64,000 nt of DNA from a virus: positions 32,001 to 96,000 of the IMG/VR virus record IMGVR_UViG_3300025000_000061; one strand, given 5' to 3'. The position numbers and the translations under genes are program-made. The notes under the pieces were generated by a model, which was not told the origin of the DNA, made no database searches, and was given only the letters and a program-made list of their open reading frames with translations. The number at the start of each line of letters is the position of its first letter. Within the stretch, counting starts at the first letter, position 1. Of the stretch, positions 7,302 through 17,145 are shown piece by piece.

Positions 7302-7724
7302 TTGAAAATATTACATAATGCTCAGTGTTATAAGCAAGATAGGGAGTTGGATTGGAGAGGGTGGTGTCCGAAGAGGGGTGAGATTTATTTGTGTCAATTG
7401 GGTAATGAAGGTCTTATATATTCAGAGATTAAGGGGTATCGTCCCGTATTGGTTGTGTCAAATAACATAGCAAACAAACATAGTCCAGTAGTTTCTATTA
7501 TACCATTAACTTCTAGTCAAATAAAAAATAATAATATGCCTGTTCATGTTAAAGTAGGAGTAGAAGAAGGGTTACGAACTTCGAGTTTAATTTGTTGTGA
7601 GCAGACTAAAACCGTATCTAAAAATCGTATGTTCATAAATGGTAGTTTAACTAGAATTTGTAAATTGAGTAGTAAATCGATGTGTAAAGTGGACGAGGCA
7701 ATACGAATACAATTTGGATTGTAA
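7302..7724 (+). CDS. mazF: MazF/PemK-family endoribonuclease, no adjacent antitoxin
   Basis: PKRGEIYLCQL...SEIKGYRPVLVVSNNIANKHSPVVSIIPLTS...HV...CEQTKTVSKNR; catalytic Arg and Thr positions retained. Confidence 0.92.
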   Translation: MKILHNAQCYKQDRELDWRGWCPKRGEIYLCQLGNEGLIYSEIKGYRPVLVVSNNIANKHSPVVSIIPLTSSQIKNNNMPVHVKVGVEEGLRTSSLICCEQTKTVSKNRMFINGSLTRICKLSSKSMCKVDEAIRIQFGL

Positions 7725-7873
7725 ATAAATTGGGAATAGATTATAAATATAAATTATAATATATATTATCATATATTATAAAAGGGTGTGATGTCTTTGA
7801 TTGTGTAAAAATAAATTAAAAAGTTATTGTGTTTAAATTGTATCTATTAAAAAATAATATAAAAGGAGGATAT

Positions 7874-9412
7874 ATGTTAGTAAAAAATCAAAAAGTTAAA
7901 ATGAATTGGAGTGGAAGTAATAGAAAACATTATGAATTAAAAGGATATCCTTTTACTAATTATAATGATGAATTTGAAGTTAAAATAGAGGATTTAGCAC
8001 CAAAAAGTCAAAAATATGTTTTGATTAGATGTGATTATTGTGGGATACCTTTTTTGAGAAGGTATGTAAATCATAATACAAGAAAAGAGAAATATGGTAT
8101 AAATGATAAAGATTGTTGTGATGATTGTAGAGCATATAAAAGAGAAGAAACATGTTTAGATAAATATGGTGTTAAAAACGCTGCTCAGACAGAAGAAATA
8201 CAAAATAAAATAAAAAGAACAATTAAAGAAAAATATGGAGTAGAATATATTTCTCAATCAGAAGAAATTAAAAACAAAAAGAAACAAACTTGTTTAGATA
8301 AATATGGAGTAGAATATACCTTACAAGTGCCAGAAATTAGAGAAATAATTACAGAAACTAATATAAATAAATATAGATGTGAAAATCCATTTCAAGCAGA
8401 AGAAATTAAAGAAAAAATAAGACAAGTCAATATGGATAAATATGGAGTTGAATATGCTTCCCAATCTTTAGAAGTGAAAGAAAAAACCAAACAAACTAAT
8501 TTAATAAAATATGGGAAAGAATACTACTTACAAACAGATGAATACAAAGAAAAGATTAAACAAAATAACCTAGACAAATACGGAGTAGAATATTATTCAC
8601 AAACAGAAGAATATAAAAACAAATATAAGCAAACCTGTCAAAATAAATATGGTGTTGATAATGTTTCACAAGTTCCAGAAATTGCAGAAAAAATTTCACA
8701 ATCACGTACAAAAGAATTTAAAGATTTGACAAATATAAAATTTAACCATTTAACAGTAATTTCTTTAGTACCTGATAAAACAAATAAGCACCATGATAGG
8801 TATTGGCTATGCGAATGTGATTGTGAAAATAAAACTAGAAAGGAAATTTCAGAAAATCATTTAGTTAGAGGAAATATTAAAAGTTGTGGGTGTATACGAA
8901 AAGAATCATTAATTGAAAGATGGGAAGGTAAAACAAAAAAGGATATATATCCTTATTACAAAGAAATATATTGTACATATGATAGTATGAGAAAAAGATG
9001 TTATAATGAAAAACATGATAATTATAAAAGATATGGTGGTAGAGGAATAATTATTTGTGATGAATGGTTGAATGATTTTATGAATTTTTATAATTGGGCA
9101 ATAAAAAACGATTATAAAGAAGGATTAACTATTGAAAGAATTGATTATGATGGCAATTATGAACCTGATAACTGTAAATGGGCAACATGGGAAGAACAAA
9201 GTTATAATAAATCAAATACGTTATACATAGAAGTAGACAATGAAATGAAAACAGTTAAACAATGGTCTGATGAAACAGGGATACCTCAACATATAATATA
9301 TCAAAGATATGCCAGATATAAAAGAAAAGATAAAAAAGAATTAGAGTTATTAACTAAAGAAAAATTCTTTAAACCAGTTAGACAACTCAAAAGAAAGGGT
9401 GATGTTGTCTGA
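7874..9412 (+). CDS. Free-standing HNH-type homing endonuclease with 23-aa KYGV repeats
   Basis: ATG 7874 after AGGAGG; about 8 repeats xTCLDKYGVEYxSQ; C-terminal WLCECDC..SCGC..MRKRCYN..YGGRGI..LTIERID..GNYEPDNCKWAT. Confidence 0.8.
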   Translation: MLVKNQKVKMNWSGSNRKHYELKGYPFTNYNDEFEVKIEDLAPKSQKYVLIRCDYCGIPFLRRYVNHNTRKEKYGINDKDCCDDCRAYKREETCLDKYGVKNAAQTEEIQNKIKRTIKEKYGVEYISQSEEIKNKKKQTCLDKYGVEYTLQVPEIREIITETNINKYRCENPFQAEEIKEKIRQVNMDKYGVEYASQSLEVKEKTKQTNLIKYGKEYYLQTDEYKEKIKQNNLDKYGVEYYSQTEEYKNKYKQTCQNKYGVDNVSQVPEIAEKISQSRTKEFKDLTNIKFNHLTVISLVPDKTNKHHDRYWLCECDCENKTRKEISENHLVRGNIKSCGCIRKESLIERWEGKTKKDIYPYYKEIYCTYDSMRKRCYNEKHDNYKRYGGRGIIICDEWLNDFMNFYNWAIKNDYKEGLTIERIDYDGNYEPDNCKWATWEEQSYNKSNTLYIEVDNEMKTVKQWSDETGIPQHIIYQRYARYKRKDKKELELLTKEKFFKPVRQLKRKGDVV

Positions 9413-10008
9413 TTGAATTTATTATAGGAGCAATTTTATATGCAAAATATAAAAAGAAATATAAATTAAAATACATATTTAAATACCCATACATATTTGC
9501 AATAATACCACCTTTATTATGTGCCTTACTATACATATTTATAGAAATATCAGTTTGGAATCAATGGTATTGGTTTTTACCATATCAACATATAATAAAA
9601 ACTACAACTTTGTTAAGTTATATACCTTTACTTTATATATATAATCTTTATGAAAATGATAATCAAAAATACATAAATAATAATATAATGAATGTAGTTA
9701 CTTCACCTATGTTTAAAGCAGGATTCTGCTTATGGTTAGGTTCGACATTAAATAAAATAGTTATAAATGCTAACAATGGTATGCCAGTTTTCCCTAGTAA
9801 TACATACTGGACTGGTTACGCCAAACCAGATTTATTTAATGATGGTATACATATATTAGGTAATGCTTATACAAAATTAATTCCTTTGTCAGACTGGATT
9901 GATATTTTTTACTCGGTGATTTCCCCAGGAGATATTTTAATTCGTATGTATGTTTTTTTAATTATATATTATGCTATAAAATATTCTAATAAATTATTAA
10001 TAAAATAA
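9409..10008 (+). CDS. DUF5317-family membrane protein (true start probably CTG 9409)
   Basis: Frame open from CTG 9409 after GGGTGA SD, giving (M)IEFIIGAILYAK..; NKIVINANNGMPV and TKLIPLSDWI..VISPGDILI motifs. Confidence 0.8.
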   Translation: MIEFIIGAILYAKYKKKYKLKYIFKYPYIFAIIPPLLCALLYIFIEISVWNQWYWFLPYQHIIKTTTLLSYIPLLYIYNLYENDNQKYINNNIMNVVTSPMFKAGFCLWLGSTLNKIVINANNGMPVFPSNTYWTGYAKPDLFNDGIHILGNAYTKLIPLSDWIDIFYSVISPGDILIRMYVFLIIYYAIKYSNKLLIK

Positions 10009-10019
10009 TAAAATAAATG

Positions 10020-10048
10020 TTGACACTTAAACAACTCTATGGTAATAT
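10020..10048 (+). promoter_or_regulatory. Sigma-A promoter for the sensor-like gene and agrD
   Basis: TTGACA-17 bp-TAATAT with extended TG. Confidence 0.75.
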
Positions 10049-10080: not shown

Positions 10081-10881
10081 GTGGAACAAAATATTATAAA
10101 TGCGATATTGAATTTTTTCACAATTAGTTTGTTCGAGGAGTTAGGTATAGTTTTACTAATTTTAATATTTTTAAAAAGATTTGATTTACTTGATAAATAT
10201 ATGTGGAGATGGAATATAAAATGGATAATTTTGCCTACAATTTTAACGTCATTCTCCATAAATATATTTATATACATAATACCAAATTTTATATTAAAAT
10301 TTTTTGTTTCTATTATTGTTTTATACTTTTCTATAAATTATATCTTAATTAAAACAGACCCATTAGATGAAAAAATAAAATGGTATAAAATATTAATCAG
10401 TATAATATTAAGCATAGTTATGATAACAAGTGCAGAAATAATATATTTACCAATAATGCTTCAATATGTTAATCAACCAATAGAAATATTGAATAATAAT
10501 ATGTTATTAAAATTTATAGTAAGTTTGCCAGCAAAAACATTTCAAGTGTTATTGATTTATTTCATGTATAAAAAACATAATCAAAGTGAAAAATATGTTT
10601 CTAATATTTTAAAAGATAGAATATTATCTTTAGTTACAATTAGTTTTACTGGTTTAATATTGTTTGCTTTAACATGTATAGTAAAAATTGTAATTAGTTC
10701 AGAAATGATTGGTAAATATTCAATACAAACTCAAATGATGATTAGTGTATTAATAACAATTGTACCAACAATACTAATATTTCTTTATATCATACCAATT
10801 AATTACCTATTATCACGATTATTCAGAATACAACAGAGTTATCAACAAATGTATGATGATGTTGATGATACTGATGTATAG
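10081..10881 (+). CDS. Polytopic membrane protein resembling an AgrC/VirS sensor domain, lacking a kinase domain
   Basis: About 7 hydrophobic helices; directly upstream of agrD; ends in a short acidic tail with no H-box or GHKL domain. Confidence 0.6.
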   Translation: MEQNIINAILNFFTISLFEELGIVLLILIFLKRFDLLDKYMWRWNIKWIILPTILTSFSINIFIYIIPNFILKFFVSIIVLYFSINYILIKTDPLDEKIKWYKILISIILSIVMITSAEIIYLPIMLQYVNQPIEILNNNMLLKFIVSLPAKTFQVLLIYFMYKKHNQSEKYVSNILKDRILSLVTISFTGLILFALTCIVKIVISSEMIGKYSIQTQMMISVLITIVPTILIFLYIIPINYLLSRLFRIQQSYQQMYDDVDDTDV

Positions 10882-10913
10882 ATACAATGAATTGAAAGGA
10901 GGTGAAATTTATT

Positions 10914-11039
10914 ATGAAAAAATATACTCTTTTAGTCGTAGCTGGTTTTATTGCTTTAGTTGCTACTGCACTTACTAATTCCGTAGCATCTTTCATGGGA
11001 TTGAATCAACCTAAGAGTCCTTCTATGTTAGTAAAGTAA
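10914..11039 (+). CDS. agrD: AgrD-like cyclic lactone autoinducer peptide precursor, 41 aa (not in ORF track)
   Basis: Strong SD AAAGGAGGTG; MKKYTLLVVAGFIALVATALTNSVA-SFMGL-NQPKSPSMLVK, i.e. amphipathic leader, 5-residue ring and QPKxP tail; agrB is 1.5 kb away. Confidence 0.88.
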   Translation: MKKYTLLVVAGFIALVATALTNSVASFMGLNQPKSPSMLVK

Positions 11040-11055
11040 TATGACTACATAGAAA

Positions 11056-11093
11056 ATTCTAAAGTAGAGTGTTTACTTCCTCTACTTTAGAAT
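11056..11093 (+). terminator. Hairpin after agrD
   Basis: ATTCTAAAGTAGAG / CTCTACTTTAGAAT perfect 14-bp stem. Confidence 0.7.
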
Positions 11094-11179: not shown

Positions 11180-12055
11180 ATGATGTTATTTAATAAAAAA
11201 GAAATTCTTAAAAAAGATAATCTTGTGGATGATAAATTTAAAAAAGAGATGGCATTTTTAGTATTTAAAGCAAAAGGTAGACGAAATATTGAACAATTCG
11301 TAAAAGACATGAAAATGTTTGATCCTACACCAATCGTTAATTTAATAAATAAAAATTATAATGAATTACCTGATAGAAAATTATTAAGGAAAATAGCCGA
11401 TAATAGTATGGGAATGGTTAATTTTAGGATATTATATGATCTCTGTGGTTACTCCGAGAGAGATCCTGAAGAAGATCGTAGTTGGATAAAATGGGTTCCA
11501 AGATGGGCAGAAGTTTATATGTGTGATCTAGGCATAGGAGAGGATTGTATTCAAGGAGGGAAAAGAAATGTATTAATAATTCAAAATAATAAAGGCAACC
11601 AACACTCACCGAATGTATCTATATTGCCAATATCCAGTAAATGTAAATTTAACCATATGCATATACTATTAGAAAAAGAATTGGGTTTTGAAAGGGATAG
11701 TTACGCATTGTCAGAAATGCCATTAACTGTAAGTAAGAGGAGGTTCTTTTATAATACAGTACCTTATAAAATTACAACACTTTCAGATTTTAAAATGAAA
11801 GAAATACAGGTATGTCTTGAGAAACAATTTGGATTTTTACCACTTTATTTTGACGTAGAACATGCATTTGAACTAGTCAGACATATAAAAAATCTAGAAC
11901 AAAATATAAAAATCAAAAAATCACATAATTTAGTAGATATTATGGAAGATAAATTAAATGACCTAAAAGAATACTGTTCAAAATACAAAAAGAATTATCA
12001 ACATTACCTACAAGAATACGATAGAATCAATAACTATGGTATTCAAGCAATATAG
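11180..12055 (+). CDS. XRE-like HTH - MazF/PemK fusion with C-terminal extension
   Basis: N-term KAKGRRNIEQF..LPDRKLLRKIAD..LYDLCGY; centre PRWAEVYMCDL..QGGKRNVLIIQNNKGNQHSP..GFERDSYAL. Confidence 0.8.
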   Translation: MMLFNKKEILKKDNLVDDKFKKEMAFLVFKAKGRRNIEQFVKDMKMFDPTPIVNLINKNYNELPDRKLLRKIADNSMGMVNFRILYDLCGYSERDPEEDRSWIKWVPRWAEVYMCDLGIGEDCIQGGKRNVLIIQNNKGNQHSPNVSILPISSKCKFNHMHILLEKELGFERDSYALSEMPLTVSKRRFFYNTVPYKITTLSDFKMKEIQVCLEKQFGFLPLYFDVEHAFELVRHIKNLEQNIKIKKSHNLVDIMEDKLNDLKEYCSKYKKNYQHYLQEYDRINNYGIQAI

Positions 12056-12126: not shown

Positions 12127-12600
12127 ATGATTAACGAACACAAATTAAAGTATCTATGCAACAAATATGGTATTAATTATCAAGTATTTCATGCAACAGA
12201 TACCATATTAATAGATGCAAAATTAGATATATGGGAGGTGAAATATTATGAAGAAATACAAAAAAAATTAAATTTATTATACAATAAACAAAAAGAAATT
12301 CAATTGCAATTATTATCTCCTGTATTAGATGAACCAATTAAGAAAAAATTATTATATGAATATGAAAAAATAAACAAAAAAATAAAAGAAACAAAACCAT
12401 ATTATTTACTTCATAAAAATAAATCTGATAATAAATTTAGCAATCAGCACACACAAGGATGGAAGAAAAATTTATATCAAGTAATAACTTTTATATTAGC
12501 ACATAAAAGAGTTTTATATGGCATCCAATTAGGAAAGCCATATATACATAAGCACAATATTAAAATAAATAAGAAGGGAAAAGTATGTTTAAATACATAA
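12127..12600 (+). CDS. Hypothetical protein overlapping the agrB start
   Basis: ORF with AAGGAG SD. Confidence 0.7.
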   Translation: MINEHKLKYLCNKYGINYQVFHATDTILIDAKLDIWEVKYYEEIQKKLNLLYNKQKEIQLQLLSPVLDEPIKKKLLYEYEKINKKIKETKPYYLLHKNKSDNKFSNQHTQGWKKNLYQVITFILAHKRVLYGIQLGKPYIHKHNIKINKKGKVCLNT

Positions 12601-13271
12601 GATACCTATTAACATTCCGATATATCAAACTAATATCCTATATATCTGCTAAATATCTTCATAATAAAATACCTGTATTCCCACTAATAGATTCAAAAGT
12701 TTTATTAAAATTTTTACCAAAAAATATGTTAGATTTATTTGAAAATTTACATCAACAATCTAAATTAAAACCATATAAACTTAAATATGTTTATTACTAC
12801 GGTTGTCAAATCATCATAGGAGGCATTAACAAATTCCTACTCTTAATCACACTAGGCATCCTACTCAACATCCTCCCATATCTCATACTAACAACAATAT
12901 CATTCGTATCATTGCGAATTTGGTCTGGAGGGTTACATTTTGACTCTTACTCTAAGTGTGCCTACATTTCACTCTTATCATTTACAATCATGGCACTATT
13001 AGCAAAATACATCTACATATCAACCATACCTACTATATTAATATTCTTAATTGTCTTAATTTTAATTCTATTATATGCACCAGTAGAGCATCCCAACAGA
13101 CCAATAAAAAATAACGAAAAAGTTAAATTTAAATTAATTTCAATTTTCTCATTGTTAATATTACTATTAGTTATTTTATGCGTAAATAATATTATTATCT
13201 GTAATTCTATAGTGTTTGGAGTGCTATTAGCAGGTATAATTATGTTGCCTATTATAAACAAACTGAAATAG
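12585..13271 (+). CDS. agrB: Accessory gene regulator B (AIP-processing membrane peptidase)
   Basis: LRIWSGGLHFDSYSKC (catalytic His/Cys pair) and YAPVEHPNRPI motifs; multiple TM segments. Confidence 0.93.
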   Translation: MFKYIRYLLTFRYIKLISYISAKYLHNKIPVFPLIDSKVLLKFLPKNMLDLFENLHQQSKLKPYKLKYVYYYGCQIIIGGINKFLLLITLGILLNILPYLILTTISFVSLRIWSGGLHFDSYSKCAYISLLSFTIMALLAKYIYISTIPTILIFLIVLILILLYAPVEHPNRPIKNNEKVKFKLISIFSLLILLLVILCVNNIIICNSIVFGVLLAGIIMLPIINKLK

Positions 13272-13809: not shown

Positions 13810-15183
13810 ATGCTTAGTATAAAAAATGCTATGTTAATAGGAGAGTTAAAACCACTAATATTAAAGTATGGCAACAATTCAAAAATCTATAACATTATAC
13901 AAGAGGAATTTATTAAAAAAGGGTTATCTGGTAGCAATGCAAAAAACTTACTAACAGGTAAAATTGCTTTAGAAACATTAGATATTACCAATCAAAAAGA
14001 ATTATTCTTATTATTTTCTTTTACAGATGCTATGAAGAAAGCACTAAGTACATTTGATGAAATGTCCAAGGACACTTTTGGCATGGAAGAGGAATATATT
14101 AAATTAAAATTAGAATATTATTTTACACCCATAGAGATTGAAGAATTTACAGAATTCGTTATAGAGAAAGAAGAAGTAAGAAAATATCCGTATAGATTAA
14201 GAAATATGTTAAAAGTAGGAGAAAATCATTATATAGGGATTATAACTTCTAAAGAATTAGCCGAAATAGATTCTACTAATGATATAGTATATGACTTTGC
14301 AACACAAAGAGATCCTAAAATTGATATATTTGGAATGAGACGTATTAATGTTGACACAAGAAAAATTGATGCAATTGAAAAAAGTTTACTTGCTGGTGAA
14401 TATTTTTCAGATGAAATCAAGTTGAATGTTAAGAATGATGGAGAAGATCATATCGAATTCGATTCAAAGGACGGAATTTATGGTGATCTTATTATTCATT
14501 CAGGAACAATAACTTGTTTTGATGGCTATCACAGAAAAACTGCCAATTCTAAAGCGCAAAATAAAAATAATGAATTGCAATTTAACTGGAAGTTAGGTGT
14601 CACCAATTATCCAGAACCTAAAGCAAGAAAATTTATGACACAGATTAATAAACAAAAACCTATTAAACGTGAATACGTTAAAAATATTGATGAAACAAAA
14701 AATGAAAATACAATTGTCAATAATATTATTAATAATTCTAATTCTGAATTTGCCGATAAAATTAAAGAATCTGATGCAGAATTAAAATTTAGTGGTTTAA
14801 CTAAAAAATCTATATTATCTCTAGCAATAGAAGAACAATATGAAGAATTTTTAAACACTAAAATTTATAATATTGAAATCTCTAATTGGATAGTAGACTT
14901 TACAAATTATTTAATGGGACTATATCCTAATGAATTTTTATTTAATGTAGACAAAACTAAAAAAGTAAGTTATATTAATAATAGAAATATGTTCATAGGT
15001 TATATTGCACTTTCAAGAAAGTTATATAAGCAAGATGATTGGAAGAGTAAGACCGTTAAAATAATGAACAGTATTGATTTTAGCATTGAAAATAGCATAT
15101 GGAAGAATATTCGTATTGATGATAATATTTTAAATAAAACATCAAGAAAAGAATTATATAATCTATTTATAAAGGAGGTGTAA
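13810..15183 (+). CDS. ParB/DndB-like (DGxHR) protein, resembling SPbeta YopQ/SroE
   Basis: TQRDP and FDGYHR motifs; 457 aa; immediately upstream of an integrase-fold gene. Confidence 0.7.
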   Translation: MLSIKNAMLIGELKPLILKYGNNSKIYNIIQEEFIKKGLSGSNAKNLLTGKIALETLDITNQKELFLLFSFTDAMKKALSTFDEMSKDTFGMEEEYIKLKLEYYFTPIEIEEFTEFVIEKEEVRKYPYRLRNMLKVGENHYIGIITSKELAEIDSTNDIVYDFATQRDPKIDIFGMRRINVDTRKIDAIEKSLLAGEYFSDEIKLNVKNDGEDHIEFDSKDGIYGDLIIHSGTITCFDGYHRKTANSKAQNKNNELQFNWKLGVTNYPEPKARKFMTQINKQKPIKREYVKNIDETKNENTIVNNIINNSNSEFADKIKESDAELKFSGLTKKSILSLAIEEQYEEFLNTKIYNIEISNWIVDFTNYLMGLYPNEFLFNVDKTKKVSYINNRNMFIGYIALSRKLYKQDDWKSKTVKIMNSIDFSIENSIWKNIRIDDNILNKTSRKELYNLFIKEV

Positions 15184-15186
15184 ATA

Positions 15187-16251
15187 ATGGTAAAGCATAA
15201 AAATGGTAAGATTAACTTAGCAGAGAGAGTATTTAAACATGATAGAGATGTTAAAGAAGAATTTTTAAAAGATATTAAACCATCAACTGCAAAAACTATA
15301 AGAAGCATACTTTTTAAAGTAGATGATTATGAAGATCGAATCGGTAAAAGTATATATGATTTTACCTTTGAAGAGCGTGATGATTTCTTTATTTCTCAGT
15401 TTTGTAATAAAAGTAAGGGCGTTATTAATACAACAAGATCATATTTAGTAAAGTATATTAACCATTGTATTGATAACAACCTTGTTAGACATATGGAGAA
15501 TAGGTTTGATTTAATTTCTAAAGATGATATTGATAAATATATTAATGATACTGCAATGCAAATGAAATATCTATCTAGAGAAGAAATTAAAGAAGCACAG
15601 GATAAATTAGTTAATAATTGTGATAAGTTAATTTTGCAATTAATACCTTTGTCTGTCAGAGGGCGTACAGAATTGAATAATACTAATGAAGAATTAATTA
15701 ATTTGAGAGTAAAAGATGCTGAAGAATCTTATGAAACAGGTATTTTGCATGTCTGGAATAATGACGGTGATAGAAGACCTGTGAAAATTGATGAAGAAAC
15801 AATAGAATTATTGAAAAAGACAATAAATGATGATAGTTATATTATTAATAACGGAAGCATTTATGATAAAAAAGGGAGAATACTTGGCAGGGGTATCGGA
15901 GAAAAATGTTTTCCTTTAAATGATACTGGTTATGTATTTAGAACTGCTGGTAAGAATAAAAAAGGAAAAGTTAAAACTAATTTTTTTGGTTCTAGGATGA
16001 GAATAATGAAAACCTGGACGATGAATCCATTTATCACCGTAACGAATTTGTATTATTCTGGAATTATCGATTATGCTATGCAATTAAGAAAAGAAAAAGG
16101 TACAGAATTAGATAATCATGATTATATTAAAATAATTGATAAGTTTTCTTATGGTAAACCACAAATACTATCAAACAAAGAATTAGATTGGAGTGTACCA
16201 ATATCAAAAGTAAAATCTATGGTGGAAGATTATATTAATAGAAAATTATAA
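15187..16251 (+). CDS. Tyrosine-recombinase-fold protein with degenerate active site, putative master repressor (YopR/SroF/MrpR-like)
   Basis: SAM-like N-terminus; YLSREEI; VRGR..EELINLRVKD; HxxR box replaced by TNLYYSG. Confidence 0.7.
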   Translation: MVKHKNGKINLAERVFKHDRDVKEEFLKDIKPSTAKTIRSILFKVDDYEDRIGKSIYDFTFEERDDFFISQFCNKSKGVINTTRSYLVKYINHCIDNNLVRHMENRFDLISKDDIDKYINDTAMQMKYLSREEIKEAQDKLVNNCDKLILQLIPLSVRGRTELNNTNEELINLRVKDAEESYETGILHVWNNDGDRRPVKIDEETIELLKKTINDDSYIINNGSIYDKKGRILGRGIGEKCFPLNDTGYVFRTAGKNKKGKVKTNFFGSRMRIMKTWTMNPFITVTNLYYSGIIDYAMQLRKEKGTELDNHDYIKIIDKFSYGKPQILSNKELDWSVPISKVKSMVEDYINRKL

Positions 16252-16263
16252 AGAGGTGATAAA

Positions 16264-17145
16264 ATGGCAAAAGACGTTAATTTATCTGATTACACTGATA
16301 TAGAAGTTTATAATATGCTTAGATTTGGTATTATAGGTAGATTTCCTAATAATTTTTGGGGTGGTTTAGATACCTTTAAAACTGCAAAAGATTTAACCAA
16401 GTATATGTTTGAAAATATTCTCAAATGGGATATAGAAGATATTAAAAATAATACAACAGCAGATATTTTTTATGACTATAGACTTGGTGGTATGCTGAAA
16501 CAATTATTTAATGGTAATGTTTTAGATGCATTATTAAATGCATATCCAGAATTAGAAGAAGAATGGGTAGAATCTAAAAGAAGGACTAAAAACGAAAAAG
16601 AAGAAGATAAAAGAGAAAAAGAAGAAAAAGAAACAAGAGAAAAATATACAGATGAACAATTGATAGAAAATTTACAGCAAAAATTTAAACAATTAAATAG
16701 AAATCCTTATATAAGAGAAATGTCAGATCCAGATGGAAATGTATATTTAACAAGATTTGGTAGTTGGACTAAGGCATTAATTGCAGCAGAATTGCTTGAT
16801 GATATTTGTGCAGATGTAGATGATTCCGAAGAAGCAATTTATGAAGCACAAATTAAGATTAAAGAATTTGCATATCAATTAGGAAGATACCCTACAGAGG
16901 AAGAAGTTAATGATTTATTTTCACAAGGAGAAATAAAAGTTTATTTTAAATCTTTAGTTGGACTTTATAATTATTTAAATGAAGGGTATACAAAAGAAGA
17001 ATTGATAAATATTTTGGTTGATAAAAGAAATAAATTAGATAGAAATCCAATAAACAAAGATATAAAATTCCCAAGACCAATTATTTTTATTGATAAATTT
17101 GAAAGTTGGGAAAATGCTTTAAAAGAAGCGGGATTAGATAAATAA
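16264..17145 (+). CDS. DUF4046-like domain plus homing-endonuclease-associated repeats (putative DNA-binding protein)
   Basis: EVYNML..RFPNNFW..KYMFENILKW; repeats FGSWTKALIAA and FESWENALKEAGL. Confidence 0.65.
   Translation: MAKDVNLSDYTDIEVYNMLRFGIIGRFPNNFWGGLDTFKTAKDLTKYMFENILKWDIEDIKNNTTADIFYDYRLGGMLKQLFNGNVLDALLNAYPELEEEWVESKRRTKNEKEEDKREKEEKETREKYTDEQLIENLQQKFKQLNRNPYIREMSDPDGNVYLTRFGSWTKALIAAELLDDICADVDDSEEAIYEAQIKIKEFAYQLGRYPTEEEVNDLFSQGEIKVYFKSLVGLYNYLNEGYTKEELINILVDKRNKLDRNPINKDIKFPRPIIFIDKFESWENALKEAGLDK

Follow-up and report, generated by a model that had tools for sequence, protein, structure and literature searches.

A phage-borne AgrD-type peptide gene with a putative Ser-closed ring beside a co-varying seven-helix membrane protein

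AgrB removes the C-terminal follower of the AgrD precursor and holds the C-terminus of the core as a thioester on its Cys, after which a Cys or Ser of the core closes the ring (PMC8251862); rings closed by Ser, that is, lactones, are rare but real (PMC8251862). Ser-lactone autoinducing peptides (AIPs) are already known from Staphylococcus intermedius/pseudintermedius (Ji et al. 2005, as cited in PMC12180512 and PMC8251862), Enterococcus faecalis (GBAP) and Clostridium thermocellum. For the product of C. thermocellum Clo1313_2818, SignalP placed the leader cut at A24|S25, and a tail-less Ser-lactone pentapeptide was identified by liquid chromatography-tandem mass spectrometry (LC-MS/MS) against a synthetic standard (PMC5322536). 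Phage-borne agr genes are also known, namely agrB, agrD and agrC of the Clostridioides difficile phage phiCDHM1 (PMC3901668), which are mentioned in reviews (PMC7790227, PMC11945551). Here, we analyse a small gene of AgrD design, referred to as agrD, and the cassette around it, in a 64,000-nt stretch of DNA (the window) of a large clostridial-type phage. The window comprises bases 32001-96000 of the IMG/VR virus record IMGVR_UViG_3300025000_000061, which has 151,782 bp and ~24% G+C.

On balance, the sequence comparisons below lead us to favour the view that this gene encodes an AgrD precursor from which the phage AgrB makes a Ser-closed cyclic signal. What is new in comparison with the described systems is a phage lineage whose AgrDs are all of the Ser type, with many ring variants, and an agrD that is split from agrB and appears to be co-transcribed with an uncharacterised seven-helix membrane protein that tracks the ring. 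Also new is a cassette without a kinase or LytTR regulator, with MazF genes inside it and in an arbitrium-like position.

The agrD gene and its peptide family

The agrD open reading frame (ORF) runs from ATG to TAA at 10914-11039 on the + strand (41 codons, product MKKYTLLVVAGFIALVATALTNSVASFMGLNQPKSPSMLVK). The product contains no Cys and ends in TNSVA-SFMGL-NQPKSPSMLVK. A Shine-Dalgarno sequence, AAGGAGGTG, lies at 10896-10904 (+), 11 nt 5' of the ATG, in an arrangement and with a spacing that are kept in relatives. The leader (residues 1-25; 10914-10988, +) consists of MKK, a hydrophobic core of 17 residues and TNSVA, with small residues at -3/-1; M1, K2 and K3 are invariant. It is followed by the predicted ring S26-F-M-G-L30 (10989-11003, +), in which Ser26 (TCT, 10989-10991) would be the nucleophile and Leu30 the acyl donor, and by the C-terminal follower NQPKSPSMLVK with the stop codon (11004-11039, +), the predicted AgrB recognition and leaving segment. 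The sequence-only reading of the window had described this ORF, its strong Shine-Dalgarno sequence, the Cys-free order leader-NSVA-SFMGL-NQPKSP and a 14-bp hairpin after the gene, all of which were borne out. It had also called the gene unannotated; this holds for its function, since the product is nameless, but not for the gene call, as the exact 41-aa product is present in public gene calls (JGI/IMG, ENA).

Using the genes around agrD as queries, we scanned collections of viral sequences, genomes and metagenomes and obtained ~40 related loci; a profile search added further agrD peptides already in the protein database. An ORF of 37-47 codons and of the same design was found ~10-35 nt 3' of the membrane-protein gene described below in every locus reaching that far. 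Because this syntenic position is the same throughout, the conservation marks the agrD ORF as a real gene, far beyond chance. Among 31 distinct peptides, ring position 1 is Ser in all (31/31) and Cys in none (0/31), and the spacing S-x4-x-[Q/E]-P is constant. Ring positions 2-5 are the most variable columns, with 1.9-2.7 bits of entropy and 25 different rings, so that the comparison across related phages proposed by the sequence-only reading did reveal diversified rings on a retained S-x4-x-QP arrangement, with a single QS variant (L034). The tail (QPKxPSMLVK) is conserved, with Q32, P33 and P36 invariant in an eight-locus alignment, and is basic, whereas the staphylococcal tail is acidic. In the QS variant, encoded at L034 1346-1465, the ring is followed by H-Q-S-K-T-P, the sole exception to the otherwise invariant Pro; it may constitute a natural test of the AgrB recognition motif.

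The same division is found at the codon level. Differences in ring codons are almost only non-synonymous, while changes in tail codons are in many cases synonymous; between the window and L004, the ring has 0 synonymous and 4 non-synonymous changes and the tail 5 synonymous and 1 non-synonymous. The ring Ser is encoded by TCT or TCA; a single substitution would turn TCT into the Cys codon TGT, yet none of the members has Cys at this position. A Cys upstream of the ring is present in roughly half of the members. Since its position varies and none is present in the window, these upstream residues are not the ring residue of the family.

The peptide has the traits of an AgrD. It is a small precursor with a hydrophobic N-terminal leader (41 aa, against ~35-55 aa), its putative nucleophile, Ser26, stands first in a five-residue core directly before the follower, and the follower is hydrophilic with a conserved Pro. 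Both in the window and in the 20 related loci in which an agrB gene was detected, that gene belongs to the same cassette as agrD and shares its strand. The design of leader, five-residue core and x-Q-P-x-x-P follower is that of clostridial AgrDs. The curated cut-off of the AgrD model TIGR04223 (quorum_AgrD), 19 bits, is passed by four relatives (L007, 33.7 bits; L010, 22.4; L005, 21.9; L003, 21.2), and the peptides of L007 and L003 have no Cys at all. L009 and L012 score below it (15.6 and 13.6 bits), as does the window peptide itself, L004 and L011 gave no match to it, and a Pfam search of the window peptide gave no match. Given the four relatives above the cut-off, the constant S-x4-x-Q-P and the AgrB in the cassette, the ORF very probably encodes an AgrD-type precursor, in agreement with the sequence-only reading.

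The seven-helix membrane protein and its co-variation with the ring

The gene directly upstream of agrD (10081-10881, +), 32 nt away and read as co-transcribed with it, encodes a 266-aa protein whose AlphaFold2 model (pLDDT 76) has seven long helices. On the basis of its co-variation with the ring, it is a candidate cognate partner (receptor) of the peptide. In 23 non-redundant loci, we asked how closely the identity of each cassette protein follows the ring sequence. Identity of the seven-helix protein was 0.78-0.99 for pairs of loci with the same ring (9 pairs), 0.38-0.79 at one ring residue difference (33 pairs), at most 0.63 at two differences and at most 0.41 at three or four. The mean identity of same-ring pairs exceeded that of different-ring pairs by 0.44 for the seven-helix protein (reached in 0/5000 label shuffles), 0.23 for DUF5317 (2/5000), 0.23 for AgrB (205/4990) and 0.08 for HTH-MazF (538/5000); the loci are related and the pairs not independent, so these shuffle counts are not probabilities. 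The tie of DUF5317 to the ring is moderate. The HTH-MazF gene, which starts ~140 nt past agrD, has no tie to the ring, and physical linkage alone is therefore not an explanation of the tie of the seven-helix protein.

Single pairs of loci illustrate this. L005 and L036 have the ring SAAWL in common, and their seven-helix proteins are 99% identical, against 78% for the leader, 80% for HTH-MazF and 84% for AgrB. L031 and L036 have identical leaders, and differ in the ring (SAAWY and SAAWL) and in one tail residue; their seven-helix proteins are 59% identical. In L032 and L033, the rings differ, with identities of 96% for HTH-MazF and 66% for the seven-helix protein. According to DNA identity profiles, the genomes are mosaics in which a breakpoint separates agrD from HTH-mazF, and this suggests recombination hot spots flanking the specificity pair formed by the seven-helix gene and agrD. 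In these three pairs of loci, identity changes from ~70% to >95%, or the reverse, between agrD and HTH-mazF; once, the profiles show a jump at the 3' end of the seven-helix gene.

There is thus strong circumstantial evidence, short of proof, that the seven-helix gene and agrD are exchanged together as a specificity pair, comparable to AgrD and its AgrC sensor or AimP and AimR. Given that the ring co-varies with an adjoining membrane protein encoded by the phage itself, these phages probably carry their own, self-contained peptide signalling channel rather than one directed at host AgrC. With its at least 25 natural ring variants and the seven-helix variants that match them one by one, the family would then represent a specificity panel for kinase-free AIP sensing.

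The protein has no named relatives. Searches of Pfam, NCBIfam and PHROG gave no match, ten distant relatives had no Pfam match either, and its atlas neighbours are unnamed clusters. Foldseek of the model against the PDB returned nothing at E <= 0.001, and the best Z in a wide VIA-align search was 7.9 over partial helical bundles, within noise for helical models. In a profile search, 1.8 billion proteins yielded 181 stand-alone relatives of ~250-320 aa; among the 150 listed, which do not exceed 326 aa, none is long enough for a kinase domain. Compared by hhalign with two clostridial AgrC-like kinases, the shallow 14-sequence family profile gave a probability of 0.5% (E 0.12), and no similarity to these kinases or to AgrB was detected with this shallow alignment. 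The invariant residues of the family are N11, E19, E20, R33, D35, D38, W42 and E119, none of which is His, Cys or Ser. The C-terminus (10837-10881 in the window) forms a long cytoplasmic helix with the motif Q-x-S-[Y/H]-Q-x-M-x-D-D and an acidic tail; the variable position of Q-x-S-[Y/H]-Q is Tyr in the window and His in several relatives.

A promoter-like site, TTGACA-17-TAATAT with TG, lies upstream of both genes at 10020-10048 (+), as a consensus match only (10/12). A 14-bp hairpin at 11056-11093 (+) closes the unit, with a folding energy of -17.7 kcal/mol (z = -4.9; no equally stable structure in 200 shuffles). A terminator scan did not call it, because the stem is followed by an A-run and no T-run. 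Six related loci have a hairpin at the same place with a different stem sequence, which suggests a conserved 3' structure at the end of a two-gene unit starting at the promoter-like site. Between the agrD stop and the hairpin, a TACAT motif (core TACATA; 11046-11050, + in the window) occurs 6-10 nt past the stop in seven of nine loci (window, L003, L004, L005, L010, L011 and L012). Its background is ~0.0023 per position per strand, and the intergenic sequence between agrD and the hairpin is otherwise diverged among the nine loci. UACAU is the cleavage site of MazF from Bacillus subtilis, Staphylococcus aureus and C. difficile. A MazF cut at this motif would part the agrD mRNA from its 3' hairpin, and the cassette comes with two MazF genes.

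AgrB, the genomic setting and the host

The cassette encodes an AgrB-type membrane peptidase/cyclase at 12585-13271 (+; PF04647, E 7.4e-37; 126.9 bits, cut-off 23), and the whole record contains no other AgrB. Its predicted catalytic His and Cys are seven residues apart (H118, C125), and an alignment with AgrBs of phages and bacteria shows no variation at R111, G115, G116, H118, C125 or P166, which indicates that the enzyme is catalytically intact. The phage AgrBs (12585-12760 in the window; L003, L004, L009 and L012) have an extra N-terminal segment of ~30-100 residues and variable length, which is absent from the two bacterial AgrBs in the alignment. The sequence-only reading had implied that agrB adjoins agrD. 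This is not the case: agrB lies 1.5 kb downstream, beyond the genes for the 291-aa MazF fusion and a 157-aa basic protein, and this order is kept in all loci long enough. A search of the record for a second AgrD-like ORF that might serve this AgrB found none. Nor did the 151.8-kb record, estimated to be 82% complete, give any match to the AgrC-type ATPase (HATPase_c_5, PF14501) or to a LytTR regulator (PF04397), and it thus lacks the AgrC kinase and the AgrA of a canonical agrBDCA locus.

The first conserved gene of the cassette encodes a DUF5317 membrane protein (9409-10008, +; PF17248, E 3.9e-15). Its frame is open from CTG 9409 and the N-terminus, LIEFIIGAILYAK..., matches the MIEFIIGAF start of the relatives; for this reason, the 132-aa ORF listed from TTG 9610 is best regarded as truncated, and the real start seems to be the non-canonical CTG, which overlaps the end of the upstream gene. 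Downstream of agrD are the 291-aa MazF/PemK fusion (HTH-MazF; 11180-12055, +; PF02452 at residues 111-216, E 1.4e-14; phrog_1936), present in all loci extending that far, and the 157-aa basic protein (12127-12600, +), which is kept in relatives. Beyond agrB follow a yopQ homologue (13810-15183, +), detected by tblastn to phi3T_96 (26% identity over 72% of the query, E 1e-20), a protein annotated in its record as similar to SPbeta yopQ, and an MrpR/YopR-type protein of the SPbeta master-repressor family (15187-16251, +; PF22822 MrpR_N_CB, E 5.9e-14, above the cut-off). In phi3T, aimR-aimP-aimX lie 2.3-3.6 kb upstream of yopQ-yopR. As the homologues of yopQ and MrpR are likewise downstream of the cassette, an agr-type cassette stands, by gene order, where arbitrium stands within an SPbeta-like layout. 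Among the other genes nearby are a stand-alone second MazF/PemK gene (7302-7724; PF02452, E 2.8e-24) and a gene for a 527-aa DUF7487 protein (7829-9412), both just upstream of the cassette. The MrpR-like gene is followed at 16264-17145 by one for a protein with HNH-associated repeats and DUF4046. No MazE-like antitoxin was evident.

The host was approached through sequence matches and co-binning. A blastn search with the cassette and tblastn searches with the seven-helix protein and AgrB gave no match among 50,697 phage records, and no cultured relative or host was therefore found. A related cassette was found on a contig of 176 kb that had been binned with the Bacillota metagenome-assembled genome (MAG) G002. 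This contig looks like a phage at both of its ends (terminase, integrase), which identifies it as a phage genome in the bin and not a prophage junction. A 959-kb chromosomal contig of G002 carries agrA (LytTR) and an agrC-like kinase gene and, divergently, agrB-agrD (L021, G002:C6:255000-268000). Its AgrD (L014 1298-1411 (-)) has 38 aa, ending in ...QRSGLIWTDEPVCPKELL, scores 19.1 bits on TIGR04223 and has a Ser, and no Cys, before a conserved E-P; it is probably Ser-closed as well, with a ring of five or six residues. If G002 is the host lineage, the host AIPs would also be of the Ser type. Two AgrB loci of the Clostridium MAG G001 have no obvious AgrD beside them and thus allow no host comparison.

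Proposed product, alternatives and comparison with known systems

Given the AgrD family membership, the invariant Ser and spacing, the variable ring, the conserved tail and the intact AgrB, a Ser-linked five-residue ring is the best reading of this family, and it is quite probable that such a ring is formed, at least as the biosynthetic product. The Ser-based lactone put forward in the sequence-only reading is supported to that extent, as the structure that the sequences favour. The 41-aa precursor would be inserted into the membrane through its leader, and the phage AgrB, through His118 and Cys125, would cut between Leu30 and Asn31 and hold Leu30 as a thioester. Attack by the hydroxyl of Ser26 on this thioester would yield the five-residue lactone cyclo(S-F-M-G-L), with a calculated monoisotopic mass of 535.246 ([M+H]+ 536.254). 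Because TNSVA|S fits a type I signal-peptidase site, the leader would most likely be removed directly before Ser26, leaving a ring without a tail, like that of C. thermocellum. Once released, the peptide would be a diffusible signal with its specificity in ring positions 2-5; its reader would be the co-transcribed seven-helix protein and not a histidine kinase, and, in analogy to arbitrium, the whole would form a communication channel of the phage next to its yopQ/MrpR lysogeny genes. That the phage has a channel of its own that is read by the seven-helix protein is a tentative proposal, which falls just short of an even call. Possible, though doubtful, is the wider scenario that clostridial SPbeta-like phages have replaced arbitrium with an AIP-type channel, in which a kinase-less seven-helix receptor reads the Ser-closed pentapeptide made by AgrB and acts through HTH-MazF on the yopQ/MrpR switch, and the pairs diversify and pass between phages as private codes.

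Besides the relatedness of the loci, several observations weigh against this interpretation. The window peptide itself scores only 14.6 bits (E 0.028) on TIGR04223, under the cut-off of 19. In about half of the relatives, the residues preceding the ring are I-N|S and not x-A|S; this makes a poor site for signal peptidase and leaves the N-terminal cut and any exocyclic tail uncertain. As agrB is not adjacent to agrD, the pairing of the two is deduced from the conserved cassette, and the tie of AgrB to the ring is just moderate. The 32 nt between the seven-helix gene and agrD imply a linkage that inflates their association, and because the seven-helix protein has no detectable similarity to AgrC-like kinases or solved folds, co-variation is what the receptor role is drawn from. 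Finally, AgrC or AgrA could sit in the missing part of the record.

As regards the peptide, a linear, Sec-secreted pro-peptide of the Phr/AimP kind, with AgrB serving another substrate, would account for a leader that resembles a signal peptide, for a position equal to that of aimP and for a weak Phr_nterm match in one relative (E 0.11). It is nevertheless very improbable: in Phr and AimP peptides, specificity resides in a variable mature peptide at the C-terminus, whereas here the C-terminus is conserved and the variable part falls exactly at the place of the AIP ring, next to an invariant Ser with invariant five-residue spacing. Moreover, four relatives are above the cut-off of the AgrD model, and the record holds no other AgrD-like ORF for AgrB. 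It is also conceivable, but unlikely, that the same precursor and AgrB chemistry end in a lactam, a head-to-tail cyclic pentapeptide. This would require cleavage of the leader immediately N-terminal to Ser26, with which TNSVA|S is compatible, followed by an O-to-N acyl shift of the ester to the free amine. The lower reactivity of esters as acyl donors, in comparison with thioesters, argues against this shift. The cut site in the window peptide is a prediction and the invariant Ser is required either way, so that sequence cannot decide. Tail-less clostridial thiolactones do rearrange to lactams, by an S-to-N shift in cyclic AIPs (cAIPs) (PMC8251862), but the C. thermocellum product was reported as a lactone that matched a synthetic standard (PMC5322536). 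According to PMC8251862, the fate of tail-less Ser lactones, e.g. in H. thermocellum, is to be clarified, and the present family bears on this question.

As regards the seven-helix protein, co-variation cannot separate a receptor from a ring-specific processing enzyme, maturation factor or export factor. The protein might thus serve in maturation, export or self-protection, as an MroQ-like second protease or an exporter, with the peptide sensed elsewhere or acting as a growth inhibitor. Maturation of the S. aureus AIP requires a second membrane protease, MroQ (bioRxiv 10.1101/516914), synthetic C. thermocellum AIP inhibited growth (PMC5322536), and the invariant E19, E20, R33, D35, D38 and E119 could be catalytic or binding residues. 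Nevertheless, we regard such roles as rather doubtful, given that the family has no invariant His, Cys or Ser, unlike a CPBP or Cys/Ser protease, that no transporter fold was matched, and that changes in the ring are usually less of an obstacle to processing enzymes than to receptors, AgrB itself being far less tightly tied to the ring here. A different possibility is that the phage AIP acts on host AgrC, as an agonist faking high density or as a cross-group antagonist, and is not sensed by the phage. The record contains no AgrC or AgrA, the same idea has been put forward for phiCDHM1 (PMC3901668, PMC7790227), cross-inhibition between AIP groups is established in staphylococci (PMC10482373), and a Ser-ring phage peptide could plausibly fit the receptor of the full agrA-agrC/agrB-agrD locus of G002, whose AgrD has no ring Cys. 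A host-directed signal would, however, have no need of a ring that co-varies tightly with a phage membrane protein, and 25 rings in closely related phages, with the seven-helix gene and agrD exchanged as one block, argue against it as well. The co-binning of the 176-kb phage contig is weak evidence for a host. For these reasons, we consider a host-directed role improbable; if true, the phage would be interfering with the quorum sensing of its host. The sequence-only reading had anticipated a peptide orthogonal to host thiolactone AIPs or antagonistic to the host agr system, for which we found no support, the AgrD of the candidate host G002 also being without a ring Cys.

The Ser-closed ring made by AgrB that we favour, and its proposed pairing with the seven-helix protein, can be set against the described systems. 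The AgrD of C. thermocellum, likened here by its published description, has the same signal-peptide-like leader with a predicted A|S cut, a Ser-first five-residue ring and one residue followed by a Pro-containing tail, and its gene is also not beside agrB (PMC5322536). It is, however, a chromosomal orphan with no identified AgrB, AgrC or AgrA (PMC5322536), whereas the agrD of the window is phage-borne and belongs to a conserved cassette with AgrB and a co-varying seven-helix protein. The S. intermedius/pseudintermedius AIP and GBAP/FsrD of E. faecalis share the closure of the ring through a Ser hydroxyl, to a lactone, by an AgrB-family enzyme, so that the proposed chemistry is feasible; they differ in being bacterial and in coming from canonical agrBDCA or fsr loci, which include a kinase and a LytTR regulator. 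The S. intermedius AIP and GBAP have exocyclic tails or a larger ring. The agr1 locus of C. difficile is chromosomal and of the Cys type, with agrB directly upstream of agrD, and is not known to have associated seven-helix or MazF genes. Like the present cassette, it has an AgrB/AgrD pair with no cognate AgrC or AgrA in the locus (agrB1D1; PMC8534292).

Two phage systems complete the comparison. phiCDHM1 is likewise a phage with agrB and agrD and without agrA (PMC3901668; PMC7790227); it has an agrC kinase gene and its genes resemble the agr3 locus of the host, whereas the window phage has no kinase and its agrD is separated from agrB. Arbitrium shares a gene for a small secreted peptide with a phage-specific variable code, located beside its presumed partner and upstream of yopQ/yopR(MrpR) and exchanged as a unit. 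The likeness is one of position and logic only, not of homology: arbitrium uses a linear peptide and a cytoplasmic tetratricopeptide repeat (TPR) receptor, while here we find an AgrD-type peptide, presumably processed by AgrB, a membrane protein and MazF genes. The cyclic, AgrB-made and Ser-closed peptide proposed here would thus be a second, chemically different candidate for phage signalling beside arbitrium.

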